In this document: positions 3,789-64,000 of the stretch, one piece after another
How positions within the stretch are numbered: the stretch's first letter is position 1
How the letters are laid out: the number at the start of each line of letters is the position of its first letter
NCBI GenBank assembly: GCA_964604195.1
Contig: CAZRXW010000001.1
Location: 2,358 to 66,357, forward strand
DNA from: an uncultured Bdellovibrionales bacterium
Lineage (GTDB): Bacteria; Patescibacteriota; Minisyncoccia; Moranbacterales; UBA1568
Direction: 5' to 3'
Length of the DNA: 64,000 nucleotides
The notes under the pieces: generated by a model
Seen by the model: the letters and a program-made list of their open reading frames with translations, nothing else
Told to the model about the DNA's origin: nothing
Databases searched by the model: none
Position numbers and translations under genes: made by a program

Positions 3789-3813
3789 AGAGCGCCTATA
3801 CGTAAGTCCGAAA

Positions 3814-3837
3814 AGTCCCGAGAAAGGGACTTTTTTA
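3814..3837 (+). terminator. rho-independent terminator (AGTCCC-GAGAAA-GGGACT + T6)
   Basis: Perfect 6-bp GC-containing stem with 6-nt loop followed by TTTTTT, immediately after the sugar-transferase stop. Confidence 0.6.
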
Positions 3838-3938
3838 CTCCCATTTTTTGTATTTTTAAAATAACGCTATACTTTTCTAAGAGCGTCAATATTTACATTT
3901 TTACCCCACTTGCTACAGTGGAGTGTCACACAATCCTT

Positions 3939-4595
3939 ATGGACAAACGCCTTTTCATTATCCTCTTTGCTCTCGTCATCCTTCTTGTAGGTGGCTATTT
4001 CGCCTGGCAGAAGCAGCAATCAGTGACTACTCCGACACCGGTCGTCACTGAACCAGTGGTGAAGGAACCAGTGCCAGCCCCAACCGAAGAACCTATCGAT
4101 ACCTCTGACTGGAAGACCTATCGGAACGAGGAGTATGGGTTTGAGTTTAAGTATCCGAAGGAGTGGGCTATTAAGAAAACTACGACACCTGCCGTGTTTT
4201 ATCTAAGATCAGAAAAATTTCAACCAGTGTTTCTAGGGAATTTAGCGTCAGGGGAACCATTTTACTCAGATGGAGAGATAAAAGTAGAAATATTTACTAA
4301 TGTACATAACCTATCCATTCAGGAGAGATATTCACAGTTTGATGATATTTATCGTGCATATGCGAATGATCCAAAACTTTTGTCCACTTTAACGAACGTC
4401 AATCATAATGACTTGTTAACCTTTGAAACACATAGAGGCTTTGGCAGAAATTTAGATTCGGATGAATACCAAACAGTGAGAATTCTTAAAATCAAAGACA
4501 AAATCCTTCACTTCGACTACATCTCTCAGAATCAGCCCGATTCACGGGTCGAGCAGATTCTCGCAGGTGTAGTACATTCAGTGAGCGAGCTATAG
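3939..4595 (+). CDS. hypothetical secreted/membrane-anchored protein (N-terminal TM, Pro/Thr-rich linker)
   Basis: ATG 3939 (the track's 3918 is an upstream GTG). Sequence MDKRLFIILFALVILLVGGYF then TPTPVVTEPVVKEPVPAPTEEP linker; no recognisable catalytic motifs. Confidence 0.5.
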   Translation: MDKRLFIILFALVILLVGGYFAWQKQQSVTTPTPVVTEPVVKEPVPAPTEEPIDTSDWKTYRNEEYGFEFKYPKEWAIKKTTTPAVFYLRSEKFQPVFLGNLASGEPFYSDGEIKVEIFTNVHNLSIQERYSQFDDIYRAYANDPKLLSTLTNVNHNDLLTFETHRGFGRNLDSDEYQTVRILKIKDKILHFDYISQNQPDSRVEQILAGVVHSVSEL

Positions 4596-4646
4596 CCATA
4601 GCAAGCAAGCTGGTTCGTTAACAACTTTCTATGGAAGGAAAGCAAG

Positions 4647-6650: not shown

Positions 6651-6690
6651 AGCATCGAGGATATATGGGGGGGATTCTCGATCGATCTAG

Positions 6691-6732
6691 GACCCGGAGG
6701 TACCGTGAGTACTTGCCGGGTCTGTTTATATT
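6691..6732 (+). terminator. terminator-like hairpin (GACCCGG ... CCGGGTC) followed by T-rich tract
   Basis: 7-bp GC stem with 18-nt loop (loop contains the recurring CCGTGAGTACTTG motif), then TGTTTATATTT; located 40 nt after the M23 stop. Confidence 0.4.
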
Positions 6733-6784
6733 TAGAAAGTCTACAAACTTATTAAGAAATCTGATAGACTTTAGAAAGTCTGTT

Positions 6785-7222
6785 ATGACTGATACAAAGC
6801 TGAAGAGAAATTTAAATATACAATTTGTTGTAAGGGTGATTTTTTGGTCACTCCTGTTTCTATCCCTGATTTTGACGGTTAAGCGGGTATATATAGATCG
6901 AGATTTTGTCCTCTCTCAAGAAATAGAATGTGATCCTTGGACTGAGAGTTGTTTTACTCGGCTTTGCGAGGAAGACTGTGACACAGAGAAGGAATATTAC
7001 AAATTACAGACTGTCTCTGCGCGGTACATGTCAACGTGTGATCCCCATATTGAAGAATGTCCAGAAATTGACTGTAATGAAACTCCAACCTGTGAGATTG
7101 TTTTCTGTGATGAGATCACCGTGACGGATGGTGAATGGTGTACAACTCCAGAAACATATCATGGGGATCAATCTGAAGAGGGGACGGATGATCTAGAAGA
7201 GGATAATGCAATAAACCAGTAA
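6785..7222 (+). CDS. hypothetical small Cys-rich acidic protein with N-terminal TM anchor
   Basis: In-frame ATG 6785 (the track ORF begins upstream at 6647, inside the terminator region). One TM (VVRVIFWSLLFLSLILTV), then 14 Cys in CxxxC / CxxC-like spacing and an Asp/Glu/Thr-rich C-terminus. Confidence 0.45.
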   Translation: MTDTKLKRNLNIQFVVRVIFWSLLFLSLILTVKRVYIDRDFVLSQEIECDPWTESCFTRLCEEDCDTEKEYYKLQTVSARYMSTCDPHIEECPEIDCNETPTCEIVFCDEITVTDGEWCTTPETYHGDQSEEGTDDLEEDNAINQ

Positions 7223-7229
7223 GATTGCT

Positions 7230-8522
7230 ATGCGCGTCCTCTTTATCTCCCGAGAACTTGGAGCTTCCGAGCTTGCTGTGGCCCTTCAACAGGAGGGCTG
7301 TGAAGTTAAAATGTTTGTCGATGACCCTGTAGTGAGTCACGGTCTTGATGGAATTGTGTCAAAAATTACCGACTGGGAATCTGAGTTGACATGGGTTGGG
7401 AAGCAAGGGCTTATCATCTTCGATGATACGGGATATGGTAAGCGTCAGATGGAATTACGAGCTTTGGGATATCGAGTGGTTGGTGGGAGCCAGGAAGCAG
7501 ATAGAATAGAGATTGATCGACTAGTAGGGAAACAAATATTTGAAGCGTCTGGTCTCCAGTCACTGACGACTTGTAGTTTTGATAACCTTGAGGAGGCTAT
7601 CCATTTTTTGTGTTCCCAGAACAATAAACGTTGGGTAGCAAAAGTAAACGGGGGCCACATTAGTTCATTGTGCTATGTCGGAGAAAATTATGACCAGAGT
7701 GATATTATTGGAGTATTGAGTCATTATCATCAGCAGGGAGTAACTCACGTAAATCTCCAAGAGCGAGTAGAAGGCGTGGAAATAGGAGTAGGACGCTACT
7801 TTAATGGATCAGATTGGGTTGGTCCAGTTGAGATTAACGTTGAGCATAAGTCACTTATGCCAAATAATGTTGGTCCCAAGACAGCGGAGATGGGTACACT
7901 CATGTGGTATGAAAGTGATGAAGAATGTCGCCTTTTTCAATCTACTTTGGCTCCGATGAAAGAATATCTGAGGAGTATAGATTTTCGTGGAGATGTAGAT
8001 ATTAATTGCATTATTCATGAAAATAATCTTTGGCCGCTGGAATTTACGGCTCGTTTTGGCAATCCTGCTACGGCATTGCAAATTGAAATACATGACTCTC
8101 CTTGGAGAGAGTTTCTTGGTGCGGTAGCGGATGGAGCTCCCTATGATCTTAAATTTAAGAAAGGTTACGGGGTCGTTGTAACGGTAGCAGTGCCACCCTT
8201 TCCTTACTATGTAGATGTCTCATCAGCTGAGACCTCTTTTGGTTTACCGGTAGTTTTTCGACAGTTATTGAATGAAAACGAATGGAAGCACTATGGCTTT
8301 GAAGAGATTGGTCGCGATAGTTCAGGAAACTTTTTTGTCGCAGGTAATCGTGGCTGTGTGGCGCATGTGACTGGTTTTGGTGAGACTATTGAGAAGGCTC
8401 GGGAAGAAGCCTATCAACGAGTAGGTAACATAGTGGTACCGAAGATGTTCTATCGGTCGGATATAGGGTTAAATTTTTTTGAACGAGAGCAGTCTCTCTT
8501 AAAGCAATGGGGATGGCTCTAA
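7230..8522 (+). CDS. divergent PurD-like ATP-grasp ligase (phosphoribosylamine--glycine ligase family)
   Basis: Collinear with PurD. N-domain MRVLFIS..GASE.A.A. ATP-grasp core with NVGPKTAEMG (cf. GPNTGGMG). C-domain WPLEFTARFGNPAT (cf. EFN.RFGDPET) and FYRSDIG (cf. FCRKDIG). Lacks the canonical GNGGREHA N-terminus, so substrate is uncertain. Confidence 0.6.
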   Translation: MRVLFISRELGASELAVALQQEGCEVKMFVDDPVVSHGLDGIVSKITDWESELTWVGKQGLIIFDDTGYGKRQMELRALGYRVVGGSQEADRIEIDRLVGKQIFEASGLQSLTTCSFDNLEEAIHFLCSQNNKRWVAKVNGGHISSLCYVGENYDQSDIIGVLSHYHQQGVTHVNLQERVEGVEIGVGRYFNGSDWVGPVEINVEHKSLMPNNVGPKTAEMGTLMWYESDEECRLFQSTLAPMKEYLRSIDFRGDVDINCIIHENNLWPLEFTARFGNPATALQIEIHDSPWREFLGAVADGAPYDLKFKKGYGVVVTVAVPPFPYYVDVSSAETSFGLPVVFRQLLNENEWKHYGFEEIGRDSSGNFFVAGNRGCVAHVTGFGETIEKAREEAYQRVGNIVVPKMFYRSDIGLNFFEREQSLLKQWGWL

Positions 8523-52145: not shown

Positions 52146-52219
52146 GGTCGCATAGTTCAGTTGGTTAGAACGTTCGATTCACATTCGAAAGGTCCCTGGT
52201 TCGAGTCCAGGTGCGACCA
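52146..52219 (+). tRNA. tRNA-Val (anticodon CAC), CCA not encoded
   Basis: Cloverleaf: acceptor GGTCGCA/TGCGACC; D arm GTTC-AGTTGGTTA-GAAC; anticodon arm TTCGA-TTCACAT-TCGAA; T arm CCTGG-TTCGAGT-CCAGG; discriminator A. Confidence 0.8.
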
Positions 52220-52279
52220 CAACAGTCTAACGGGGCAGGCATTGCAGGGGTCGGTGGTTCCCTGCCCGCCTCTGGAGGG

Positions 52280-52297
52280 GAGTCCAGGTGCGACCAC
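52280..52297 (+). repeat. 18-nt direct repeat of the tRNA-Val 3' end (GAGTCCAGGTGCGACCAC), att-like remnant
   Basis: Exact copy of 52203-52220 located 60 nt downstream of the tRNA, preceded by a degenerate T-arm-like hairpin. Confidence 0.6.
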
Positions 52298-52395
52298 TAG
52301 ATTTTTAGAGTAAGTACTGAGAAGTGGTACCCCTTGCTGTTTGGGCGTGTGGCCCACTTATTGTTTTTACAACCAATTTTTCAGTATTATTTTTT

Positions 52396-54714
52396 ATGAA
52401 GGAGCAGATACTTCCTCCATCTTCCTCTCCAGAGAGTGTTTCCAAAAAACAAGAGCTCACCACGAGTCGAGAAGAGCTCATGGCTGATAAGTTAGGACAT
52501 TATCAGGCGCTGAAGACATCAGTACAGGAGATATTTGGGACTGTAGAGATTCCTGAAAGTATTCGGGATAAAGTGCTTGGGCTTCGCCAGGAGATCAAAC
52601 AGGCGATTTCGGAATCAGAGTATCTGGATACGTTTGACGCTCGTATTGAAAAAGAAATTGCTGGACTTACGGAGGTGATATTGGCCTATCAAGTCCCTCA
52701 AGGGAATATTATGGGTTTGGATGAGCGTGCAGTGCAGAAAGAAGCTTTGATTGATTCTCTGCGACTGTATCTTGATTCCTATCGTCTTGCACATAATGCT
52801 GCTCACTTTCGAAAGAATGTGGCAGATCTTCAAGATGATATCCTCAAGGAGCATCAGGCGAGAAGTTTAAACTTTTATGCAGAGGATGAGAAACAATCCG
52901 TGTTAGCTGACCGTGTATTCAAAAAGTACGAAACTGCTGGATTTACCAAGGAGGAAATTGCTGAACTCGTGGCGACGTGCCATCTTGAGCGATTGGATGC
53001 ATTAGAAATTCAAGATCTAAAAATTATTGAGAAAATTGGCAGCATTTTTTCTCGTTTCATGGGTGGTGACAAGACCCGCTATGTTGGTCTCTCGGCGGCT
53101 CTGATGGTGCCGGCTGTGATTGAGGGTTATGCTCCCTCTGTTCTCGCAGATGCTTTTCGAGAGAATAGTATTGATTTGACGCAGGTAGGCTTGTTTGCCC
53201 TCCTGACTTCGGTGGCGGCTGGTGGATCAGCCTTTCTTCAAAAGCGATTCAAAGAATTTCTTGATAAAAATTTTGCTAAAGAAGATGGTTTTGGCCAGTA
53301 CATCGCCGAAGGGGTAGCTGAATTTCCTGGGACGGAAATTGGTACTTTTGGTGCCGAGAAAATAAAGCGTCGGTTGGCAGAGTCCAAATCAAGTTATGAA
53401 CGTATATTACGAAAAATAAGTTTTGATATTGTTCCAGCCGCTGTGACCTTGGCCACGAGTGCTGCGGTTTTGTATCAGCGTAGCCCTGCACTCGCTGCTG
53501 GTACAGTGGTGGGGACAGGCATGATGATGGCCGTCGATCATTATGTTCATAAAAAAGGGAAATTTTGGGATAAGCGTCGGCGAGCCAAGGAAGAAGCGGA
53601 GCAGGTAAGTGAAAAAATGAGCGAGTTGCTCAATGCTCATATGGAGGTGATCCTCTCTGGAGAAAAAGATCGTTTTGCTGCGGATATGGAGGATCTTCTC
53701 GCAAAAGAACGCGTGGCGCTCTCTGATAAGACTTTTATGGACGTGGTTCGTGACAGGGTCGGGGAAATAACGCAAATGGTTAATTTTGTTATCGCTGCCA
53801 TGGCGGCCTATATTGCTGGTGGCACTTCCGATAAGTTTATCGCAGCACTGATGTATTCGGGCCGGTTTCATGAAGGGATAGCCATGATGCTGAGCGCCAA
53901 ACAGGATCTATTAGATTCACTTCGTGACATCGTCCAAATGGAGGTCATGTTTAATGGGTATGCTGCCGAGGAGAAAGAGAAAGATCGAGTGGGCATGAGT
54001 TCACTCGAGCATCAAGATATCCTCCTTTCAGGTGTTGGGGTAACCTTTGGCGAGAAACAGATTCTTGATTCTATCGATGTGACTATCCCCAGCGGCTCGT
54101 TTGTTTCTCTTGAGGGTATATCGGGATCGGGAAAAACAACACTACTGAAAGTATTGGCGGGGTATTATCGACCAACCGCGGGCGAAGTGACTCTTGGTGG
54201 ACAAAACATGGAAAATCTGAAAAAGAGTGGTCCAGACTCTGTTTATAGTAAAATAGCGTATCTTTCGCAATTTCCTTACATAGTGGAGGGTGATGTTCGA
54301 TCAAATCTCACTTTTGGAATTCAGGGTGACGTGAGTGATGATGAGATTCAGGAGGTGTTACAACAGGTGGGGTTAAGCGCTCGATTTTCCAATCTGAGAG
54401 AAAAACTTGTTGGAGGACGAGGTGATATGGGAACTGCTTCTGGCGGTGAAACTTCTCGTATTGGACTAGCAAGGACCCTACTCAAGATGCGAAAAAATGG
54501 AGCCAAGATTGTATTTTTGGATGAACCAACCGCTTCAGTTGATGAAAAAACAGCTACGGAAATAGCCAAGATTCTTAATGAGGAGAAAAAAAGAGACCAC
54601 GGAGTAACCTTTATTGTTATTAGTCACGATAAACATTTTCGTGAACAACTTGAGACGACGCAGATAGTCCAGCTTGGACATGGAAAACTTATGGAGGATA
54701 GTCCTGCGGCCTAA
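52396..54714 (+). CDS. fused ABC exporter (6-TM permease + C-terminal ATPase) with ~230-aa N-terminal cytoplasmic extension
   Basis: C-terminal Walker A GISGSGKTT, signature ASGGETSRIGLARTLL, Walker B IVFLDEPTASVD. Six predicted TM helices between residues ~240-560. Likely start ATG 52396 (track 52324). Confidence 0.65.
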   Translation: MKEQILPPSSSPESVSKKQELTTSREELMADKLGHYQALKTSVQEIFGTVEIPESIRDKVLGLRQEIKQAISESEYLDTFDARIEKEIAGLTEVILAYQVPQGNIMGLDERAVQKEALIDSLRLYLDSYRLAHNAAHFRKNVADLQDDILKEHQARSLNFYAEDEKQSVLADRVFKKYETAGFTKEEIAELVATCHLERLDALEIQDLKIIEKIGSIFSRFMGGDKTRYVGLSAALMVPAVIEGYAPSVLADAFRENSIDLTQVGLFALLTSVAAGGSAFLQKRFKEFLDKNFAKEDGFGQYIAEGVAEFPGTEIGTFGAEKIKRRLAESKSSYERILRKISFDIVPAAVTLATSAAVLYQRSPALAAGTVVGTGMMMAVDHYVHKKGKFWDKRRRAKEEAEQVSEKMSELLNAHMEVILSGEKDRFAADMEDLLAKERVALSDKTFMDVVRDRVGEITQMVNFVIAAMAAYIAGGTSDKFIAALMYSGRFHEGIAMMLSAKQDLLDSLRDIVQMEVMFNGYAAEEKEKDRVGMSSLEHQDILLSGVGVTFGEKQILDSIDVTIPSGSFVSLEGISGSGKTTLLKVLAGYYRPTAGEVTLGGQNMENLKKSGPDSVYSKIAYLSQFPYIVEGDVRSNLTFGIQGDVSDDEIQEVLQQVGLSARFSNLREKLVGGRGDMGTASGGETSRIGLARTLLKMRKNGAKIVFLDEPTASVDEKTATEIAKILNEEKKRDHGVTFIVISHDKHFREQLETTQIVQLGHGKLMEDSPAA

Positions 54715-54745
54715 ATTTTGTGTATAGGCAGAAATACATGGGAGT

Positions 54746-55090
54746 ATGAAAATCGTCTTTTTGGCTGGGCCGTACCGCGGCCGTGGCGAACCCGGGGAAA
54801 TCGAGCGCAATATCGCGCAGTCGGCCAAATTTCAGGCGGCACTGGCGCATGCGGAAATGGTCGCGTATAGTCCCAATATTCATGATGCTCATTGGGAGAC
54901 CCTCAATGGCGGGAGTGAAGCGGCTGCCAAAACATTGCGTGCTTTTACCGAATGGGTGTTTGCAGAATGTGTGACAGCATTGGCGGTTATGCCTGGTTGG
55001 GAGACCTCGACTGGCACCCAAAAAGAAATTGCGTCTGCTCGAGAGCGAGGTATCCCGATTTTTTTTTCCTCCAGAATCCAGATGATCTGA
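54746..55090 (+). CDS. DUF4406 family protein (nucleoside 2-deoxyribosyltransferase-like fold); GC-rich
   Basis: MKIVFLAGPYRG ... MPGWETSTGTQKEIASARERGIPIFF matches DUF4406 pattern (MKIYLSGPM...LPGWE.S.GA..E...A...G.PV) common in (actino)phages. High GC/GC3. Confidence 0.6.
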   Translation: MKIVFLAGPYRGRGEPGEIERNIAQSAKFQAALAHAEMVAYSPNIHDAHWETLNGGSEAAAKTLRAFTEWVFAECVTALAVMPGWETSTGTQKEIASARERGIPIFFSSRIQMI

Positions 55091-55240
55091 CTGAACTTTT
55101 GGCTTGGTATCAATCGTAGGTATCAAATAGTTGCCCCGCACTCCTTTTCATGGTATGAAAGAGGGGCTCTTTGACAATTCCGATGACAATAAAGTCAAGG
55201 AAAAAATCTTCCACAACCCATTACATGATGGAGGTCAGCG

Positions 55241-56428
55241 ATGGCGCAACCTATCCGTAGTTCTGCATTTGATCATGGGCAAGGTCCTTTTGAGCCCCTC
55301 TTGCGGCGCTATGGCGCGAACTTTCATCGGCTCTACGGTGAGCAGGGGATGGCGGTACTCCGTCAAAACGGTTACATCTTCATGGGTGACAGTCGTACAC
55401 CTGGTACTCGTTGGGCGCCGCCCTGGAACCCTACCAGAGTGTTGACGGTACCGTACAACGGGAAGCCGGTTATCTGGCGCAATGAGTGCCCGCACAACAA
55501 GAAGCGACTGGTTCAACCGACGGCCATGCCTGTCTCGGTGAACTTTGGTCAGCCGATCGTCTGCGGATTCCACCACCTGAGTTTCAACCAAGCTGGAGTC
55601 ATTCGTGGCTGTGGCCGGATGGAACTAGCGGTGGGGGCTTTGCCCGTGGATCGCTGTGAAGAGTCACCGCATTACGAGTGGCAGGGGCTGGTGTTTGAGT
55701 TGGGCCAGAATGCCGATCGAGCAGAAGAGCGGCTACGCCAGAGCCTGGCTTTCGCTACGGAGGCAGGTGAAGGGCTGTTCGATTTCACCGACTACGTTCC
55801 TCACTGCTCGGTTGAGGCTCTCCAACGAGCTGATGCCCTTATGTCGATCGTCAATTACCTCGACATCCGGCATATCCCGAGTCACAAGGGCACCCTGGCG
55901 CCATTCGTCAATACGAACGACTACACGCATCGCGGGAGCGATGCCGGTGTGATCCAGTTCATGGGTCTCAATCCCAGCTTCCTCAGCGAACACCCCCTGG
56001 GAAAGCTCTATGTCCAGTCTGGACTCGGAGCTCTCAGGTACGGGGCAGCGTGGCTCACGACCCCAGAAGGACTCATGATCGAGTGGTATCCAGGGGTGCT
56101 GGTCGTCAGTCAGTGCTTCCCACATCCACTCGACCCGATGGCCTGTATCTTCCACCACCTGTTCTACTACCACCGGGCAGTACTGAGGCTCATGGATGAT
56201 GATCCAGCGAATCCGTACTCCTATGTTCGTGCCCACCAACCTGTCTTCAAGGGGACCGGTGACGAGGATGAGCTGTGGTGTAGCGAAGCCACAGCTAATC
56301 TCGTAGCGATGGCAGCTGAAGGTCGAGGAGGAGAAGAGTGGGGCTTCTTTGACCCGGCTCAGGAGAACTATGGCCGTTGGTACTACCAGATGGCTGAGAA
56401 GCGTCTTCGCGAACTGGTTGGATGCTGA
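55241..56428 (+). CDS. putative Rieske [2Fe-2S]-type oxygenase-like protein (tentative); GC-rich
   Basis: CPH-x22-CGFHH resembles the Rieske CxH...CxxH ligand pattern, though the spacer is longer than the canonical 15-17. Downstream DIRHIPSH His-rich segment could be a mononuclear-iron site. No close family recognised. Confidence 0.35.
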   Translation: MAQPIRSSAFDHGQGPFEPLLRRYGANFHRLYGEQGMAVLRQNGYIFMGDSRTPGTRWAPPWNPTRVLTVPYNGKPVIWRNECPHNKKRLVQPTAMPVSVNFGQPIVCGFHHLSFNQAGVIRGCGRMELAVGALPVDRCEESPHYEWQGLVFELGQNADRAEERLRQSLAFATEAGEGLFDFTDYVPHCSVEALQRADALMSIVNYLDIRHIPSHKGTLAPFVNTNDYTHRGSDAGVIQFMGLNPSFLSEHPLGKLYVQSGLGALRYGAAWLTTPEGLMIEWYPGVLVVSQCFPHPLDPMACIFHHLFYYHRAVLRLMDDDPANPYSYVRAHQPVFKGTGDEDELWCSEATANLVAMAAEGRGGEEWGFFDPAQENYGRWYYQMAEKRLRELVGC

Positions 56429-56579
56429 CCCTGCTTTCCTTGATGAAGGTCTCGCCCGGTGCAGCTGCACTGGGCGGGACATGCCACCATACCGATGCAT
56501 ATTGGTGTGGTGGCTTTGCTTTTTATAGGGGAATTCCCTATGCTATACATATTGCTTTTGAACCAAAGTCATTTTTCTT

Positions 56580-57902
56580 ATGCTTGATATCCAATATATC
56601 CGTGACCACGTTGATGAGGTGAAACAGGCCGTTAAAAATAAGCGGCTGACTCTGGATGTAGATACACTCTTGGCAGCTGATCAAGATCGACGCAAGCTTC
56701 TTCAAGAAATTGAGGAACTCCAATCACTCAAAAATGATATCAATGACCTTATTCATGGCGCCAAGACGCCTGAAGAGCGAACTGAAGTAATTGCCAAGGG
56801 CAAAGAAATCAAAGCCAAGCTTGATGAACGCGAGCCGCTTCTTTTGGCCGCTAAAGCCAAATTTGAGGGACTCATGGTCCAGGTGCCGACAGTGCCATCA
56901 TCTGATACACCAGTGGGGGCGAGTGATGCTGATAATGTTGAGATAGGGAAATATGGCGAGCTGCCGCAGTTTGCTTTCTCTCCCAAGACTCATATCGAAC
57001 TCGGAAAAGATTTGGATATTCTTGATTTGGAGCGAGGAGCTAAGGTATCGGGGTATCGGGGTTATTACGTGAAGAATGAAGGAGTACTCCTCATCATGGG
57101 GGTCATGCTTTATGCGGTGCAGAAATTGGTATCCAAAGGATATCTCCCGATGATTCCACCGACTCTCGTGAAAGGTTTTCCACTTTTTGGTTCAGGGTAT
57201 TTCAAGGGACTTTCTTATGATAGTTCTATTGATGAAATTTATGAGGTAGCTACTCATGACAAAGAAAGTGATGGCAGTGTGAGTAAGGAAGAAAAATTTC
57301 TCGTAGGGACAGCTGAACCATCACTCCTCGCATACTACAGCGGTGAAGTATTGGATGGTGCGAAACTTCCTCTGCGATTGGCTGGCTACAGTCAATGCTA
57401 TCGGAGTGAAATCGGTAGTTATGGCAAAGATACCAAGGGCATGTATCGGGTGCATGAATTTATGAAGGTAGAGCAGGTAATTTTGGCCCCTGCTGATCGA
57501 GAGCTTGCCACACGGCTTCAGGATGAGATGATAGCTATTTCCGAGGAAATGCATCGAGAACTCGGCCTTCCGTATCGCAAAATCCAAATTTGTACCGGCG
57601 ATATGAGTGCTGGGAAATACCGAGCCTTTGATCTCGAAGCCTGGATGCCAGGTATGAACCGCTATGGTGAGACGGGGTCGGCCAGTAACTTTCTTGATTG
57701 GCAATCACGCCGCCTCAATGTGAAATATACTGATCCCGAGACGGGCGAGAAGAAATACGTTTATATGCTCAATAATACTGCTCTCCCGAGCCCACGCATT
57801 TTCATTGCGTTGCTCGAAAACTATCAGCAGGCTGATGGGAGTATTCTGGTACCCGAGGTACTGCGGCCTTTTGTTGGAAAGGAGAGAATTGAGAAAAAAT
57901 AA
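56580..57902 (+). CDS. serS: serine--tRNA ligase
   Basis: N-terminal coiled-coil tRNA-binding arm. Class II motifs (…FRSE-like YRSEIGSYGKDTKGMYRVHEF; motif 3 GSASNF…). Confidence 0.9.
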   Translation: MLDIQYIRDHVDEVKQAVKNKRLTLDVDTLLAADQDRRKLLQEIEELQSLKNDINDLIHGAKTPEERTEVIAKGKEIKAKLDEREPLLLAAKAKFEGLMVQVPTVPSSDTPVGASDADNVEIGKYGELPQFAFSPKTHIELGKDLDILDLERGAKVSGYRGYYVKNEGVLLIMGVMLYAVQKLVSKGYLPMIPPTLVKGFPLFGSGYFKGLSYDSSIDEIYEVATHDKESDGSVSKEEKFLVGTAEPSLLAYYSGEVLDGAKLPLRLAGYSQCYRSEIGSYGKDTKGMYRVHEFMKVEQVILAPADRELATRLQDEMIAISEEMHRELGLPYRKIQICTGDMSAGKYRAFDLEAWMPGMNRYGETGSASNFLDWQSRRLNVKYTDPETGEKKYVYMLNNTALPSPRIFIALLENYQQADGSILVPEVLRPFVGKERIEKK

Positions 57903-57973
57903 AAGATGAACGGTCTTGTCTTCGGGGCTTGCCGTCTCTCCTTTTTTATTGTAGGTTAAGGATTGTATTAGAT

Positions 57974-58049
57974 GGGTGCGTAGCTCAGTCGGTAGAGCAG
58001 TGGCCTTTTAAGCCAACGGTCGAGGGTTCGATTCCCCCCGCACCCACCA
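57974..58049 (+). tRNA. tRNA-Lys (anticodon TTT), CCA encoded
   Basis: Acceptor GGGTGCG/CGCACCC; D arm GCTC-AGTCGGTA-GAGC; anticodon loop CTTTTAA; T loop TTCGATT; 3' ACCA. Confidence 0.8.
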
Positions 58050-58069
58050 TACTTATTTTTTGAAATGAG

Positions 58070-58130
58070 CTTTTAAGCCAACGGTCGAGGGTTTCCGTCC
58101 GAAGGAGGACGCTTCCCCCCCGCACCCACC
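58070..58130 (+). other. partial duplicate of tRNA-Lys 3' half with 22-nt hairpin insertion (tRNA fragment / att-like remnant)
   Basis: CTTTTAAGCCAACGGTCGAGGGTT (identical to 58005-58028) + TCCGTCCGAAGGAGGACGCTTC + CCCCCCCGCACCCACC (identical to the tRNA 3' end); no 5' half present. Confidence 0.5.
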
Positions 58131-58170
58131 CTTATCTCCTCATGGTATACTAGAGGAAAGTCAAAAATGT

Positions 58171-59304
58171 ATGCGTATACTTTCTTTAGGTGGCCTCTTG
58201 TTTTCGTTTGTAGTTTTATCTGGTTGTTCACTTACTCCACCTCAAATTGGTGGTGGGGGAAATAATAACGATGGTACCCGTAACCCTTTTCAGGCCAAGG
58301 CTATCCCGGGATCAATTTGGCGTTCTACCGATGGTGGAAAAACGTTCGAACCAAAAGTGACTGTTGATGAGAAACGTAAAATTACTTCAGCCCAGGTACT
58401 GGATATCTCATTTCTGCTCCGAGATACTTCGGGGAATCTTGATGTGAAGCGTGCGCCAAGTGTATTTGTGGGAACAGTAGATAATGGGATCTTTAAATCC
58501 AACGATAGTGGAGAAGGATGGGAACCTCGCGAATTTCCTCCCAAAAAAGTCTATCGTTTCACAGCTGACTCCACCAATCCTGATCGTATGTTTGCAACAG
58601 GTGTGGTTGCTAATTTTGGCAAGGTTTTTCGGACAAAAGATGGTGGTGAGACATGGCAAGATGTTTACACTGAGCCAGGCGCAGGGACAGTTATTGTTTC
58701 ACTAGCGCAGTCCCGCTGGGATTCAGAAACTATTTTTATTGGAACGAGTACGGGGACTATTGTGCGCAGTAGTGATGGTGGTGATACCTGGAAAAATGTT
58801 GGGAGTGGTATTGATGGTCCCATTACGGAGATAGTATTTGATGCCTCTGTGAGAACTCGCTTATATGCACTGGTCTTTGATAAGAAGATCTATCGCTCAG
58901 ATGATGGGGGATTGACATGGACTGATCCGCTTCTTGAAGTGAAGGATCCTATTCCGACAGCTACCAATGTGATTGGTCAGGTATCGCTCGTAGCGGACCC
59001 ATATCACTCGGGTCGTCTCTATGTAGGGACCAAAAAAGGTCTCTACCGGAGTACGGATACCGGTATACATTGGGAGAAGATGAATATTATTGAAAGTGCT
59101 GAGAAGTTTCCTATTAGGGCGATTGCCATTAATCCCAAGAATTCCAACGAAATCAGTTTTGTGTCTGGACATACTTTCTATAAGTCAACCAATAGTGGTG
59201 ATACATGGTCAGTAGTGCCACTGGATGTTGACAGGGAGGTGTCGGTACTCGCTTATGACCCTTTTGATCCGACGGTGCTTTATCTGGGACTCCGTAAATT
59301 CTAA
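58171..59304 (+). CDS. lipoprotein with BNR/Asp-box repeat beta-propeller (Ycf48/sialidase-like)
   Basis: Lipobox LSGC at signal peptide end. At least 6 S/T-x-D-G-G-x-T-W repeats (STDGGKTF, TKDGGETWQ, SSDGGDTWK, SDDGGLTWT, STDTGIHWE, STNSGDTWS). Confidence 0.65.
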   Translation: MRILSLGGLLFSFVVLSGCSLTPPQIGGGGNNNDGTRNPFQAKAIPGSIWRSTDGGKTFEPKVTVDEKRKITSAQVLDISFLLRDTSGNLDVKRAPSVFVGTVDNGIFKSNDSGEGWEPREFPPKKVYRFTADSTNPDRMFATGVVANFGKVFRTKDGGETWQDVYTEPGAGTVIVSLAQSRWDSETIFIGTSTGTIVRSSDGGDTWKNVGSGIDGPITEIVFDASVRTRLYALVFDKKIYRSDDGGLTWTDPLLEVKDPIPTATNVIGQVSLVADPYHSGRLYVGTKKGLYRSTDTGIHWEKMNIIESAEKFPIRAIAINPKNSNEISFVSGHTFYKSTNSGDTWSVVPLDVDREVSVLAYDPFDPTVLYLGLRKF

Positions 59305-59329
59305 ATTCTGTATTTAATGAAAAACCTAT

Positions 59330-59887
59330 ATGGCTCAAGCAATGATTGAAGCAAAGCGTGGAGATTTTGATAAGGCAGTGGGCTTCCTTGAGGGAGAGCT
59401 TCTTAAACTCCGTACCGGCAGAGCCCATCCAGGACTCGTTGAGGATCTCCTGGTTGATTACTATGGCACCATGACGCCTATCAAACAGATGGCGAGTGTC
59501 TCGGTGCCTGAGCCACGTCAAATCCTCATCTCACCGTGGGACAAAGGGGCATTAGCTAAAATTGAGGCGACAATTAGGGAGTCTGATCTGGGTCTCAATC
59601 CGCTCAATGATGGGGTAGGGGTCCGGGTAGTTCTTCCAGCTCTCACAGAAGAACGGCGCAAGGATCTTGTGAAGGTGCTCAATACTAAGGCTGAAGAGGC
59701 TCGTATTGCTATTCGTTCAGTGCGTGAAGATATCTGGAAAGATATTCAGGAGGCTGAACAAAATGGCGAAATGGGTGAGGATGAGAAATTTCGCGGAAAA
59801 GAAGATTTGCAGAAGGTTGTTGATGAATACAATGCTCGGATTGAGGGGTTGCGCGACAAGAAGGAACAAGAAATCATGACTGTCTAA
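59330..59887 (+). CDS. frr: ribosome recycling factor
   Basis: 185 aa; L.TGRAHP.L...LLVDYYG..TP..Q.A.VSVPEPR.I.I.PWDK typical Frr. Confidence 0.9.
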   Translation: MAQAMIEAKRGDFDKAVGFLEGELLKLRTGRAHPGLVEDLLVDYYGTMTPIKQMASVSVPEPRQILISPWDKGALAKIEATIRESDLGLNPLNDGVGVRVVLPALTEERRKDLVKVLNTKAEEARIAIRSVREDIWKDIQEAEQNGEMGEDEKFRGKEDLQKVVDEYNARIEGLRDKKEQEIMTV

Positions 59888-59892
59888 CGCGT

Positions 59893-61041
59893 ATGTTGAC
59901 CGCTATTGTCTTTATTCTCATTCTTGGGGTACTTATTTTTGTCCATGAGCTCGGGCATTTTCTCACGGCCAGGCGAAATGGTATCAAGGCCGAAGAGTTT
60001 GGTTTCGGCTTCCCCCCAAGAGTATTTGGATTCGTGTTCGATGACTTTACCAAGAAGTATCGCTGGGTGAAGGGGAATGAAAATGTCGAAAGTCCCCATA
60101 CGGTTTTTTCGCTGAACTGGATTCCGCTTGGTGGCTTTGTTCGTATCAAGGGTGAAGATCGTGAGAGTGAAACAGCCAATGATCCAGATAGCTTTGTGAA
60201 TAAAAGTGCCTGGGTTCGCTTCAAGGTGCTCGTGGCTGGTGTTGTCATGAATTTTTTCTTGGCGTGGATTCTCTTTTCGGCGGTGCTCATGCTCGGGTTT
60301 CCAGAACAGATTAATCCTGCTGATCGGGGAGAGTACGCCGTGACTCAGGTGCAGATTTTGCAGATACAGCCAGGTACTCCAGCCGAGACTATGGGGCTTT
60401 TAGCTGGTGATGTGTTGCTCCAGCTTGATACTACAGCGGTCAAGAATCTTGGTATTGTGACTGAATATATTGCTGCCCATAAAGGAAAAGAAATTGCTGT
60501 TACTGTAAAACGAGGAGACAAGACGCTTGTCTTTACAGGGGTGCCGCGAATGGAAGCTCCTCAGGGTGAGGGAGCACTGGGGATTAGTTTTTCAGAAACA
60601 GCTATCGTCAGGTATTCATTCTTTGAAGCCATCTGGAAAGGGCTAGAACAAACCTATCTCAAGACAACTGAGATACTTATGGTGTTGGCTCAGACAGTCG
60701 GCAGTCTCTTTACTGGATCAAAGGCGAGTGTAGATATTGCTGGACCGGTAGGTATCGTCTATCTCACCAAGCAGATGACCGAGCTTGGTCTCGTGTATCT
60801 CCTCTATTTTGCAGCGATTCTTTCTATCAATCTGGGGATCATCAATGCACTTCCTATCCCAGCCCTTGATGGTGGTCGTATCTTGTTTGTGCTCATCGAA
60901 AAGCTCAAGGGTTCACCAGTATCTCAAAAAGTGGAGGGGTATGTTCATCAAATTGGCTTCATGCTCCTTCTGTTCTTGATGCTTTGGGTAACATTTTACG
61001 ATATTCTTCGTTTTGATATCTTTGGCAAATTCTTTGGTTAG
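59893..61041 (+). CDS. rseP: RIP metalloprotease RseP (site-2 protease) with PDZ domain
   Basis: HELGHF zinc motif in TM1, internal PDZ (GLLAGDVLLQLD), C-terminal LDGG motif. Confidence 0.85.
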   Translation: MLTAIVFILILGVLIFVHELGHFLTARRNGIKAEEFGFGFPPRVFGFVFDDFTKKYRWVKGNENVESPHTVFSLNWIPLGGFVRIKGEDRESETANDPDSFVNKSAWVRFKVLVAGVVMNFFLAWILFSAVLMLGFPEQINPADRGEYAVTQVQILQIQPGTPAETMGLLAGDVLLQLDTTAVKNLGIVTEYIAAHKGKEIAVTVKRGDKTLVFTGVPRMEAPQGEGALGISFSETAIVRYSFFEAIWKGLEQTYLKTTEILMVLAQTVGSLFTGSKASVDIAGPVGIVYLTKQMTELGLVYLLYFAAILSINLGIINALPIPALDGGRILFVLIEKLKGSPVSQKVEGYVHQIGFMLLLFLMLWVTFYDILRFDIFGKFFG

Positions 61042-61118
61042 AATATGGCTTATTTTAGCCAAAAATAGAGATATAAAGTCTTTCTACCTTCCCCCTATCG
61101 ATAGCTTCGGTGGGGGGA

Positions 61119-61147
61119 TTGACTTTTTATCAAAATTTTGCTATTAT
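61119..61147 (+). promoter_or_regulatory. sigma70-like promoter TTGACT-N17-TATTAT
   Basis: -35 TTGACT 61119-61124, 17-nt spacer, -10 TATTAT 61142-61147, preceded by a TCCCCC...GGGGGA hairpin; SD GGAG then ATG 61176. Confidence 0.45.
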
Positions 61148-61175
61148 CATAAGTCAGTTTTAATTGGAGCCAATT

Positions 61176-61799
61176 ATGCCATCAATTGATTTTTTGCGTA
61201 TTTTGAGCGAGAAAAAAGGGAGCTTGCTCTTGGCGGGTATTTTTTTCGCCGCATCAGCCTTCTTTGCCGTAACGATTCTTTCTCCTCGAGTCAAAACAAC
61301 GACTGATTTTATGGTAGTGCAGACTACGGCTCAGTCACAGGATTTTTATTCCCTGTTTAAATCCTCTGAGTATCTTGGCCGAGTATTGGCCCAAGCTATT
61401 GGGAGTGAGCGTTTTATTGATGCCGTTATTGAAACCGGTAAAGTCGAGAAAGGATTTCTTCCAGTAGAAAAAAGTGAGCGACTCAAGACTTGGCGTGAAA
61501 TGGTTACGGTAAAAAGCGATGCTGAGCTCGGGATGATGTCGGTGGTGATCAAGGCTGATACCGATCGTGAAGCTGGAAAGATTATGCAGGCAGTATCAGA
61601 GGTGCTGACGACCAAGAATGCTGCATTCCGAGGTGGTGATGAAAAGGCGGTAGAAATTAGAGTGCTGTCTGGTCCTATTACTGAACGGAACCCGGAACCC
61701 AAAGAACTTATTCTCGTTATTATGGTTGCTTTTATGAGTGGTGTAGCCCTCATGACAACACTACGAGTAGTGCAGAAAGCTATTAAGAGGGGATACTAA
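61176..61799 (+). CDS. hypothetical 2-TM protein (possible Wzz/polysaccharide co-polymerase-like topology)
   Basis: TM near each terminus flanking a ~150-aa soluble region. ATG 61176 with SD (the track's 61164 is an upstream TTG). Confidence 0.4.
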   Translation: MPSIDFLRILSEKKGSLLLAGIFFAASAFFAVTILSPRVKTTTDFMVVQTTAQSQDFYSLFKSSEYLGRVLAQAIGSERFIDAVIETGKVEKGFLPVEKSERLKTWREMVTVKSDAELGMMSVVIKADTDREAGKIMQAVSEVLTTKNAAFRGGDEKAVEIRVLSGPITERNPEPKELILVIMVAFMSGVALMTTLRVVQKAIKRGY

Positions 61800-61917
61800 G
61801 AGAGCGCTGCTCTCTCCTCTCGAGAGACTCTGAAGGTTCAGGTTTTCTCGAGAGGAAAGATTCGACCAAGTACCTAAAAATCCTACTTATCTTCAATCTT
61901 ATCAATGGAGGTCTCTC

Positions 61918-62763
61918 ATGAGGCTTGCTCCCTGGATACTGAGCTTGGCTATCGCTCTGCTTACGGGTTGTTCTTCTTTGCCACGTGATAGTGGCTTCGA
62001 AGTGCGGACCGTCGAGCCGATGGGTCGCCAAGATCCCTGGCAGAACCGTGCGATCAACCTCGCGCCGTTCACGCCGAAGGGTGTGGCAGTTCTCTATGTC
62101 CGGCTCCCGCAGCCGATACCGAGTTTCTGGCGACAGGAATTCGTCGACCCGGCACGGGTGTACGAAACGACCGAGGCAGGCCGCAAGGTTCGCCAACCGC
62201 TCGTACGAGAAGTCTTCCGGGCCATCGTCATGAGGAATGGGGTGACTCAAACTCATGACGCCGTGGTGGACCGCGAAGGTCGAGGGTTCCTCGTCTTCGC
62301 GCTGCTTACCGTAGCCGACACACTTCCGGGCCAGTCGCTCCTCATCCTGTCTTCGGACGGGAAATGGGGTATGACGAGCCTGGGAGAGCGTGTCGAGTTT
62401 CCTTCGGGTTTCGACCCGCGGGCAGTTCCCAGTGACTTCTTCGTCCAGCACCGCTCACCGATTACGCAAGTAATTCGGCTCGAGCCGGCAAAGGACGAGT
62501 ACGCCCGGCGTGTCCTTGATGGTCTTGCGCAAAGTTTCCCCAAGCTGTTCTGGCTGAGGGGGAAAGACGAATCCTATGCCGGGAAACCGGATGTGGCCGA
62601 TGTCCTTGCGCAATTCACCTCCCTCGAGGGAGTAGCTGACAAACTGCTCACCTGTACCAGTCTCAAGGCTGGTCCGGCGACGGCAGCAGCGCTCCCACTC
62701 GTCGCGACGCTCTACGGCATCCAAGCCGTGCGAGCGCTCAGCGTTGATGACTGCCTGAAATAA
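61918..62763 (+). CDS. hypothetical lipoprotein, GC-rich (~62% GC)
   Basis: Signal peptide with lipobox LTGC. Strongly elevated GC/GC3 versus the rest of the window. No motif recognised. Confidence 0.55.
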   Translation: MRLAPWILSLAIALLTGCSSLPRDSGFEVRTVEPMGRQDPWQNRAINLAPFTPKGVAVLYVRLPQPIPSFWRQEFVDPARVYETTEAGRKVRQPLVREVFRAIVMRNGVTQTHDAVVDREGRGFLVFALLTVADTLPGQSLLILSSDGKWGMTSLGERVEFPSGFDPRAVPSDFFVQHRSPITQVIRLEPAKDEYARRVLDGLAQSFPKLFWLRGKDESYAGKPDVADVLAQFTSLEGVADKLLTCTSLKAGPATAAALPLVATLYGIQAVRALSVDDCLK

Positions 62764-62899
62764 GGCAGAGAAAGGAGTCCGCTCATATGAGCAGCTCAAC
62801 TGTTTCAACCCGTTACCGGGACGAAGCGTGGGCTGCTCCTTGTGGCCCACCTTTGCTCCTGGATTCTTCAACTGAACCCATGCCCGAAGGAGGCACCAA

Positions 62900-64000
62900 A
62901 TGAAGTCAACTTCAAGAGTGGCAGCAGCAGCGGCCACACTCATCAACCCGCGAACGGTGATGCCTCTGGCAGCTATCGTTGCAGCGAGTCTCTTGGCAAC
63001 CTTCACCCAGGTGGTGAAGAGTGCTGGGCAGACAGCTTCAGCAGCCGCCAGTACTCCAGCCGTTCAGGCGTCGGCACCAGCTCGGGCAGCGAGTGCTCCG
63101 GCAGTTGCCGCGAGCACACCGCAGCCCCGGGCTCCGAAGCCTGCAGCGGTGACTACCACCGCTACCTCGACCGATGTCTACTATCTGACCCCCGGCAGTT
63201 CGCTGTCGGCAGCCTTCGGCAAGGGGTGGAAGAAGGTGTGTGACGCCAGTCACCTCCGCCAATGCGGAATCGTCCGACCGACGGATCCGCTGAGTGTTCC
63301 TGCCGACGTGAAAATCGTCGACGGGACCAAGCTGCGGGCGAAGCCAGCGGCTCAAGTAGCGGTCAAGCGTGCAGTGTCCAGGGACGCAAGTCCTCAAGCA
63401 ACGCGCGTTGTCCGCCGGGCAGTGATGCGGGAGCAATCCTGCATTACGCTCGGAGTGGCGCCGTGGAATCCTGATGGAGACCTCGCGCGTACTTTGGCGG
63501 GCATCGACCAGATGCAATCGCTGACGCCTGAGCAAAAGGCGCTGGTGAAGACCAAGGTCAAGGCTGGTGAATGGACGACGGAAAACGAGCTCGTTGGGAC
63601 GCAAGTCTTCGGCGAAATGCTCTACGCGGGTGCTCATTCAGGCAAAGCCCAATCTGTCCGTGGCAAGCCGCTCTGCACACCTGAACAAGGTGGGCAACCG
63701 GAAGTCATGAACACGATCGATCTGGGAGATGGGGTTCATTTCTCCCTCCCACGTCGGTGCAAGAACCCGAGCGTGTTCACACGCCCGATCGTTCCGCAAC
63801 CGCGACAGCCTGAACCCGAGTCGCCACCGCCAGACCAGCCACCGCCACCGCCAGACCAGCCACCGCCACCGCCAGACCAGCCCACAACTCCTCCAGTCGT
63901 GGCAGCCCCTCGGGGTATGTGCGACTTCGTCGATGTGGCCGGGGCACTGGGTCAACACCATGTGCCACGCCAGAACGGTGACAAGGCTAGCTCAGACTTT
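62900..64000 (+). CDS. secreted Ala/Pro-rich protein with C-terminal PPPPPDQ tandem repeats; GC-rich, 3' end beyond window
   Basis: ATG 62900 with strong SD GAAGGAGG 7 nt upstream. Frame (phase 2) is open to the window end; it is absent from the ORF track because no stop lies in the window. Signal peptide, then Ala/Ser/Pro-rich low-complexity region, several Cys, PPPDQ repeats. Confidence 0.5.
   Translation, partial: MKSTSRVAAAAATLINPRTVMPLAAIVAASLLATFTQVVKSAGQTASAAASTPAVQASAPARAASAPAVAASTPQPRAPKPAAVTTTATSTDVYYLTPGSSLSAAFGKGWKKVCDASHLRQCGIVRPTDPLSVPADVKIVDGTKLRAKPAAQVAVKRAVSRDASPQATRVVRRAVMREQSCITLGVAPWNPDGDLARTLAGIDQMQSLTPEQKALVKTKVKAGEWTTENELVGTQVFGEMLYAGAHSGKAQSVRGKPLCTPEQGGQPEVMNTIDLGDGVHFSLPRRCKNPSVFTRPIVPQPRQPEPESPPPDQPPPPPDQPPPPPDQPTTPPVVAAPRGMCDFVDVAGALGQHHVPRQNGDKASSDF
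63824..63880 (+). repeat. tandem 21-nt repeat (CCACCGCCACCGCCAGACCAG, 2 full + 1 partial unit) encoding (PPPPPDQ)n
   Basis: Direct reading of 63824-63880; also produces the WRWRW periodicity seen in the spurious minus-strand ORFs here. Confidence 0.7.

Follow-up and report, generated by a model that had tools for sequence, protein, structure and literature searches.

A predicted Rieske-type oxygenase gene as probable cargo of an exchange-prone tRNA-Val–serS slot in a bacterium of the candidate phyla radiation

What has brought together a gene for a protein resembling nucleoside 2-deoxyribosyltransferases (NDTs; gene 1) and a gene for a Rieske-like oxygenase (gene 2) in a short segment rich in guanine and cytosine (GC), at 54746–56428 of the 64,000-nucleotide (nt) stretch of contig CAZRXW010000001.1 analysed here (the window)? 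The original prediction, made from the sequence, saw in them a coupled two-gene island of foreign and possibly phage origin, whose products might act on nucleotides or nucleosides. Our analysis favours a different answer, to which we assign a probability of roughly 70%: gene 2 is the oxygenase cargo of an exchange-prone slot in a Moraniibacteriota-like genome of the candidate phyla radiation (CPR, or Patescibacteria), and gene 1 is an older resident that is its neighbour through the site of insertion and not a demonstrated functional partner. The two predicted open reading frames (ORFs), 54746–55090 (114 amino acids, aa) and 55241–56428 (395 aa) on the + strand, were confirmed, and the pair is indeed flanked by tRNA-Val and serS; the prediction had, however, passed over an ABC ATPase gene that intervenes between the tRNA and gene 1. 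The layout of the region is as follows.

52146–52220, + strand: tRNA-Val(CAC), identified by ARAGORN and Rfam; left border of the variable slot
52203–52220 and 52280–52297, + strand: 18-nt 3′ end of tRNA-Val in perfect direct repeat, the two copies separated by a 59-nt GC-rich spacer
52396–54714 (ORF 52324–54714), + strand: ABC-type ATPase gene (Pfam ABC_tran, 2e-22)
54746–55119 (annotated frame 54746–55090, 114 aa), + strand: gene 1, predicted NDT-like protein (DUF1937/DUF7768/DUF4406), from Pfam, PHROG and AlphaFold2/Foldseek
55241–56428, + strand: gene 2 (395 aa), predicted alpha subunit of a divergent Rieske non-heme-iron oxygenase
56580–57902, + strand: serS, identified by Pfam and blastn; right border of the variable slot
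57974: tRNA-Lys, downstream of serS

Comparison of the window with the related locus L011 using blastn reveals the replacement directly. The two DNAs are 98.7% identical as far as position 52220, where tRNA-Val ends and the match is lost, and have nothing in common over 52221–56572; identity returns at 88% from 56573 (serS) and stands at 96.7% from 58116 onwards. The slot of L011 is occupied by a single Rieske gene of a second clade (B), whose product is 38% identical to that of gene 2, and it contains no homologue of gene 1 (DUF gene). Since L011 matches the flanks of the window and shares nothing between them, we conclude that the real unit is the variable slot 52221–56572, including the ABC ATPase gene, and not a coupled two-gene island. 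The horizontal transfer proposed earlier is thus visible as a replacement between near-identical backgrounds.

Related loci were gathered by exact-protein look-ups and pattern scans and compared by means of tblastn, blastn and ARAGORN; a scan of metagenome contigs contributed a single further locus, L012. The 13 related loci share the backbone mreBC–PBP2–greA–lysS–tRNA-Val–(variable slot)–serS–tRNA-Lys–BNR protein–frr–rseP, and in nine related loci ARAGORN likewise places tRNA-Val after lysS. Twelve loci have an informative tRNA-Val/serS interval, the contents of which are:

Window: ABC ATPase, DUF (frameshifted) and Rieske clade A
L025: DUF and Rieske clade A
L008: PNPOx-like, DUF and Rieske clade A
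L006: DUF and Rieske clade B
L001, L011, L012: Rieske only
L007, L022, L023, L024, L026: DUF only

Both genes are thus found in four distinct genomes, the DUF gene alone in five and the Rieske gene alone in three, so that the predicted co-occurrence is real and yet eight of the 12 loci carry only one member of the supposed pair. The DUF gene is the common resident, immediately following tRNA-Val or preceding serS in 9/12 loci; a Rieske gene occurs in 7/12. In the DUF-only loci the DUF gene often starts 1–50 nt past the tRNA, and 5–42 nt separate its end from serS in all but L022 (about 240 nt), which suggests that it belongs with serS. Where both genes occur, DUF precedes Rieske in 4/4 genomes, across an intergenic gap of 110–240 nt. 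Overall, the DUF gene looks like the ancestral resident of the slot and the Rieske gene like an insertion between it and serS. In L008 a gene for a PNPOx-like (FMN-binding split-barrel) protein, at 43–495, precedes the DUF gene by 4 nt; it is the sole flavoprotein-like neighbour across the loci examined.

A third Rieske clade (C) is represented by L004, L005, L009 and L010, the flanks of the last being too short to show a neighbour. In the first three, which belong to higher-GC genomes, msrA follows the Rieske gene and no DUF gene is present. Small ORFs upstream of it in L004 (112 aa) and L005 (94 aa) were considered as hidden DUF homologues and rejected, there being no BLASTP similarity. The clade C gene of L004 lies just downstream of genes for a Rep-like protein, a large serine recombinase and a SocA/Panacea-domain protein (2409–7891), neighbours that suggest a mobile-element context, and in L009 a gene for a SOUL heme-binding protein lies upstream on the opposite strand. 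Related records are labelled Candidatus Moraniibacteriota (P0004/L002 and L009) or, less plausibly, 'uncultured Bdellovibrionales' (the third-party, or TPA, assemblies L008, L010 and L011, which have the shared backbone) and 'Thermomicrobiales' (one short contig); the Bdellovibrionales label is likely to be a taxonomic error.

Exchange does not always stop at the right border. Window positions 56573–58047 are 88% identical in DNA to L011 2182–3656 within flanks of 97–99% identity, and against L006 the BNR-repeat protein is 91% identical, SerS only 54%; recombination tracts therefore reach into serS or replace it. At the left border, the 18-nt direct repeats, for which zero matches are expected by chance, enclose a 59-nt spacer that is absent from L011 and present in L025 (87% identity). 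The repeats and spacer look like an att-type scar, which would mark earlier site-specific events at tRNA-Val. A third copy of the repeat, bracketing the cargo, was not found with up to three mismatches allowed.

Gene 2, which has a ribosome-binding site (GGAGG) 5 nt upstream of its ATG, belongs to an extremely rare family. Only 17 matches were found among 5.8 billion (5.8e9) proteins, and a HMMER profile run against 1.84 billion (1.84e9) representatives yielded 12 clusters with E ≤ 1e-30; beyond these lay a halo of some 130 remote relatives. The halo proteins have both PF00355 and PF00848 above threshold; their best NCBIfam match is GbcA (GlBtMonoOxGbcA), at no more than 68 bits against a cutoff of 670, and where they carry a name (in JGI records) it is choline monooxygenase or ring-hydroxylating oxygenase alpha subunit. 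An AlphaFold2 model of gene 2 built from 16 family members has a predicted local distance difference test score (pLDDT) of 87 and a predicted template-modelling score (pTM) of 0.87, and shows a two-domain fold, a Rieske domain followed by a START/Bet v1-like catalytic domain. A Foldseek search of the PDB with this model places CntA and stachydrine demethylase at the top (E of about 1e-15, TM-score 0.67–0.74). CntA is also the best match of the family profile among PDB sequences (8e-6), the family motif NYLDIRHxxxH aligning with NYMECYHCGPAH of CntA.

The CPH-x22-CGFH and DIRHIPSH motifs noted in the original prediction are present in gene 2, and alignment assigns putative metal-binding roles as follows.

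55487–55573, + strand: C83-P-H85-x22-C108-G-F-H111, predicted ligands of the Rieske [2Fe-2S] cluster
55862–55885, + strand: D208-x2-H211-x3-H215, predicted bridging carboxylate and two histidines of the mononuclear iron
56264–56269, + strand: E342-D343, with D343 as candidate for the carboxylate that binds the mononuclear iron

Residues C83, H85, C108, H111, H211, H215, E342 and D343 are invariant in the family and in canonical relatives, as checked in 17 family members and in the alignment of core and halo; D208 is invariant within the family, and D343 sits in a long C-terminal helix (327–359) of the model. D208, H211, H215 and E342-D343 line up with the 2-His-1-carboxylate motif (D/E-x2-H-x4-H and a distal Asp) of canonical Rieske oxygenases and of CntA. 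The spacing of the ligands is less orthodox. The canonical C-X-H-X15–17-C-X2-H pattern does not describe gene 2, in which the Rieske spacer has 22 residues; 23/25 core sequences fall within 20–24 and the two exceptions have 28 and 40, whereas the mode in the halo is 16–17 (some up to 39). Similarly, the iron-binding histidines are spaced H-x3-H in 20/25 core sequences, against H-x4-H in 52/53 scorable halo sequences. We read the long spacer as a loop insertion that keeps the ligands, and both spacings as derived traits that appear typical of the family.

The ratio of non-synonymous to synonymous substitution rates (dN/dS) of the Rieske gene across the family is 0.08–0.2, indicative of purifying selection, and no beta-subunit gene was found beside it in any locus examined. 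By predicted fold and conserved ligands, then, gene 2 appears to encode a Rieske-type oxygenase, in keeping with the earlier assignment and at odds with a non-metal fold. The literature searched contained nothing on this family, or on such Rieske oxygenases in CPR bacteria.

Gene 1 was placed by the original prediction in DUF4406, which is right at the level of the superfamily. The best Pfam matches are DUF1937 (31.6 against 23 bits, 2.7e-7) and DUF7768 (27.6 against 26); DUF4406 is marginal (23.0 against 22 bits, over the 35 residues 72–106), the true NDT family PF05014 falls below its gathering score (19.1 against 28.8 bits), and there is no NCBIfam match. At superfamily level, PHROG 355, 'nucleoside 2-deoxyribosyltransferase', matches at 7e-12. 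The AlphaFold2 model (pLDDT 88) is matched in Foldseek by CtNDT from Chroococcidiopsis (8pqr), the DUF1937 protein 1t1j, DNPH1 and BcmB. A PGWE-x-S-x-G-T-x-x-E motif is conserved, and E94, conserved in 10/11 sequences of the family alignment, lies at the position of the NDT/DNPH1 nucleophile. The catalytic tyrosine of these enzymes (Tyr7 in CtNDT, Tyr24 in DNPH1) presumably corresponds to F5 of gene 1, as judged from motif alignment. Sequence and model together thus indicate a member of the NDT-like superfamily, the product of which would most likely, by analogy, cleave or transfer the N-glycosidic bond of a nucleoside or nucleotide. We know of no member of DUF1937 or DUF4406 with known activity; the literature searched held nothing on DUF1937 and mentioned DUF4406 in passing only.

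In this strain, gene 1 appears to be crippled. Its homologues end in ...GIPIFYLKDETDLTELLTWYRS, whereas the window frame ends in GIPIFFSSRIQMI followed by a stop at 55090; the missing C-terminus, ...LQNPDDLTELLAWYQS and stop, can be read in another frame to 55119 (ORF 54952–55119), so that the conserved end ...DLTELLAWYQS is encoded out of frame. The frameshift arises in a homopolymer within the gene:

55059–55067, + strand: T9 tract, T6–T7 in relatives

Eight contigs, each the product of an independent assembly of a different sequencing run and 99.97–100% identical to the window, have the same T9, from which we conclude that the frameshift is a real feature of the strain and not a random assembly error. 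Gene 1 may have been inactivated recently; alternatively, transcriptional slippage at this site may restore the frame. In relatives, the DUF gene is under strong purifying selection (dN/dS 0.06–0.12).

Phage origin, which had been suggested for the pair together with an actinobacteriophage link for gene 1, finds no echo in the searches. The DUF alignment has no relative among 2.9 million viral contigs, and the best GenBank phage matches of gene 1 are only 27–29% identical and belong to 9NA-like enterobacterial phages. Gene 2 has no tblastn match in 50,697 phage records and no PHROG match.

Potentially the most interesting reading of the locus, a nucleoside-processing partnership, is not supported by these results. 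In such a module, acting on nucleosides, nucleotides or nucleobases, the N-glycosidase would free a modified base and the oxygenase would hydroxylate or N-demethylate it for salvage. In its favour, the two genes are neighbours with a shared strand and a constant order in four genomes (the window, L006, L008 and L025), both families are rare and largely confined to one lineage, and CPR bacteria, as general background, depend on salvage. The single-gene state of eight of 12 informative loci, and the clade C genes beside msrA, argue the other way and undo the coupled island. Moreover, the 110–240-nt gap between the genes is not operon-tight, unlike the DUF–serS gaps of most DUF-only loci; the nearest relatives of gene 2 are of the choline monooxygenase (CMO)/GbcA/CntA kind and not of the NdmA/VanA class; and the frameshift of gene 1 in this strain, beside an intact gene 2 that is subject to purifying selection, makes an obligate partnership less credible still. 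No link between Rieske oxygenases and NDT-like proteins was found in the literature searched. Taken together, we regard such a module as unlikely.

The reading of gene 2 as oxygenase cargo of the slot must itself be set against several observations. Neither domain of gene 2 reaches its Pfam gathering score (PF00355, 17.5 against 20.3 bits; PF00848, 19.9 against 24.9 bits), although other family members pass for one domain (P0029, Rieske, 35.7; P0038, Ring_hydroxyl_A, 56), and the protein has no NCBIfam match. Examination of the slot and of 13 related loci revealed no gene for a reductase or ferredoxin, and crude motif and Pfam checks found no redox partner in the window, the candidates picked up by regular expression proving to be DnaJ or to have no Pfam match. 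CPR bacteria are mostly regarded as anaerobes, hence O2-dependent chemistry is unexpected in them. The slot contains no integrase or mobility gene, as judged from its ORFs and Pfam; exchange would most probably proceed by homologous recombination in the flanks that the genomes share. Finally, the constant DUF-then-Rieske order in four genomes leaves some room for a functional link.

These sub-threshold scores, the lack of a nearby reductase and, as general background, a host that is likely to be anaerobic would also suit a Rieske-fold protein that is not an oxygenase and serves as an electron carrier, binding protein or pseudo-enzyme, and the non-canonical x22 and H-x3-H spacings point the same way. 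We consider this very unlikely: all seven metal-ligand positions and the bridging Asp are invariant over sequences that are only 20–45% identical, a full START-like catalytic domain is modelled at high confidence, and purifying selection is strong.

The third gene of the slot invites another interpretation. Located between tRNA-Val and gene 1, and ending 31 nt upstream of the latter, the ABC ATPase gene encodes 772–796 aa (772 as called in L014); its GC content of 44.9% is native, its GC at third codon positions (GC3) 39%. The N-terminal region (535 aa, about 535–570) has no Pfam match, and the gene was not found in any other related locus by tblastn or blastn comparison. The ATPase, the NDT-like protein and the oxygenase might be turning over under diversifying selection as a defence or conflict island, as the hypervariable, tRNA-adjacent position and the replacement of deep alleles in 97–99% identical backgrounds could suggest. 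The ATPase weakly matches the PADLOC models mad3 and mad8, and NDT/SLOG-like folds do occur, as general background, in conflict systems. Those two matches, however, are confined to the generic ABC ATPase domain of a gene held by the window strain only, and genes 1 and 2, tried as parts of a known defence system, have no PADLOC match. The DUF gene is kept in most relatives under constraint of the kind seen in housekeeping accessory genes. A defence island is accordingly very improbable indeed.

Composition sets gene 2 apart and gene 1 much less so. The window has a GC content of 45.9% and the segment 54746–56428 one of 55.2%, lower than the 58–60% first given for it. Gene 1 stands at 53.0%, the spacer between the genes at 42.7% and gene 2 at 57.4% (GC3 63.4%), followed by serS at 46.3% (GC3 44%); within the segment, 57–59% is reached only by 300-nt windows inside gene 2. 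Compared with all 1188-nt windows (mean 45.7%, standard deviation 3.6), gene 2 lies about 3.3 standard deviations above the mean, whereas 7.6% of 345-nt windows are as GC-rich as gene 1. Gene 2 is thus compositionally foreign, as predicted; gene 1, taken alone, is not outlying. The GC content of the Rieske gene exceeds that of the genes around it in every context examined, which is consistent with its having spread from higher-GC Moraniibacteriota lineages or from beyond them.

An assembly chimera or contamination, to which the abrupt GC shift and other GC-rich patches in the window might point, is effectively refuted by the eight contigs from independent runs that are 99.97–100% identical across the junctions on both sides and by homologous arrangements in other genomes. 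These contigs (L013–L020) match the window over 52191–63851 and derive from at least eight sequencing runs with SRR and DRR prefixes, and we conclude that the organism is widely sampled and nearly clonal. Two further stretches of the window are GC-rich. The first, 4647–6650 (about 55% GC), encodes a secreted-looking protein of 667 aa with Peptidase_M23 and CARDB domains. The second, at about 61900–64000 (60–63%), is stronger and possibly another acquired island; its junction is confirmed by L013 at 100% identity. It holds a lipoprotein-like ORF of 281 aa (61918–62763) and, from 62900, an open-ended ORF with Ala/Pro-rich stretches and PPPPPDQ repeats, neither of which has a Pfam match.

The palindrome noted downstream of gene 2 (56453–56476) is real and occurs once in the window, with zero matches expected by chance; a repeated element is thereby ruled out. 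It forms part of a larger structure:

56449–56480, + strand: hairpin 1, a 14-bp stem with the palindrome as its core
56483–56524, + strand: hairpin 2 (56483–56514), a perfect stem of 14 bp, followed by the T-tract TTTGCTTTTT

The region folds with a z-score of −6.5. L001, L006, L008 and L011 also have hairpin 1, its stem maintained by compensatory changes and directly followed by GCTTTGCTTTTT. Hairpin 2 comes from an insertion of about 35 nt between hairpin 1 and the T-tract, specific to the window strain among the five loci compared, and with its T-tract resembles a terminator. Because hairpin 1 is conserved with compensatory changes and a T-tract in four relatives, we identify the palindrome as the conserved intrinsic (Rho-independent) terminator of the Rieske gene, which insulates that gene from serS.

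How the cargo would work can be outlined on the preferred reading, in which the tRNA-Val–serS interval is a slot prone to recombination and integration, its content differing even among near-identical genomes. Gene 2 would be a functional, alpha-only Rieske oxygenase of a very rare divergent subfamily, with choline-monooxygenase/GbcA/CntA-like enzymes as its nearest recognisable relatives, and would assemble as a homotrimer (α3). Once loaded with metal, its [2Fe-2S] cluster at C83, H85, C108 and H111 would be reduced by a ferredoxin or reductase encoded elsewhere; the electron would cross the subunit interface via D208 to a mononuclear Fe(II) at H211, H215 and D343, where activation of O2 would drive mono-oxygenation/hydroxylation or oxidative demethylation of a small, probably polar substrate. 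Quaternary amines are the substrates of the nearest relatives; by extension gene 2 might act on a small, polar N-methylated compound, though this guess is a doubtful one. Gene 1 would be the older, lineage-resident NDT/DNPH1-like gene that normally lies between tRNA-Val and serS and is truncated here.

Three features of the locus are unusual: an intact, selected gene for a predicted O2-dependent enzyme in CPR/Patescibacteria, usually called anaerobic and metabolically minimal; the rarity of the family, which accounts for roughly a dozen clusters (at 50% identity) out of 1.84 billion; and the swapping of deep Rieske alleles at one tRNA-Val–serS slot between otherwise near-identical genomes. The family might, more broadly, be a CPR-specific O2-dependent enzyme acting on a host-derived small molecule, its deep alleles being retained as interchangeable versions in the hypervariable slot because the range of substrates follows host or environment; the substrate might be an amine, methylated or quaternary, or else a modified nucleobase freed by the adjacent NDT-like glycosidase. 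We think this quite unlikely; if it were true, episymbiotic and supposedly anaerobic Patescibacteria would gain an unrecognised oxygenase-based capacity for salvage or detoxification. A substrate, if found, could indicate a metabolite exchanged between symbionts and hosts.

The locus may finally be compared with known systems. Gene 1 is predicted to share the flavodoxin-like fold of the DUF1937 (1T1J, PA1492)/DUF7768/DUF4406/NDT/DNPH1/BcmB superfamily. It differs from NDT and DNPH1 in the apparent replacement of the catalytic Tyr by Phe (F5), and from the DUF1937/DUF4406 proteins in being frameshifted and in having close relatives that are chromosomal in CPR bacteria and not in phages. The slot, for its part, resembles tRNA-adjacent genomic islands: its variability begins exactly at the tRNA-Val 3′ end, it has an 18-nt duplication of that end and a cargo gene of atypical GC content, and its content differs between near-identical genomes. 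Unlike theirs, its repeats enclose 59 nt only and not the cargo, and it lacks an integrase.

Among Rieske enzymes, the alpha subunits of the aromatic ring-hydroxylating dioxygenases are only 10–13% identical to gene 2; NDO, BphA, TPADO and NagG (except those of the 3n0q type) are α3β3 enzymes with alpha subunits of 420–460 aa, whereas gene 2 has no accompanying beta gene. The CntA/Stc2/GbcA/choline monooxygenase group comes closer. Like its members, gene 2 is alpha-only, about 370–400 aa in length, with a Rieske and a PF00848-type domain; its family appears to have the same ligand set and bridging carboxylate, and CMO/GbcA-like proteins are its nearest sequence neighbours outside the family. 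In contrast, identity to the group is only 12–15%, the Rieske spacer is 21–22 residues (not 16–17) and the histidine motif H-x3-H (not H-x4-H), no CntB/GbcB-type reductase adjoins the gene, the NCBIfam GbcA model does not match and the host is a CPR bacterium. On these comparisons, gene 2 resembles the GbcA/CntA/choline monooxygenase group without being a member of it. Rieske oxygenases are well understood, and a subfamily whose cluster-binding loop is longer and whose iron motif is shortened to H-x3-H adds modestly to what enzymologists know; what is new here is a motif-variant subfamily of a well-known enzyme class in a swap-prone slot, and not a new kind of system.

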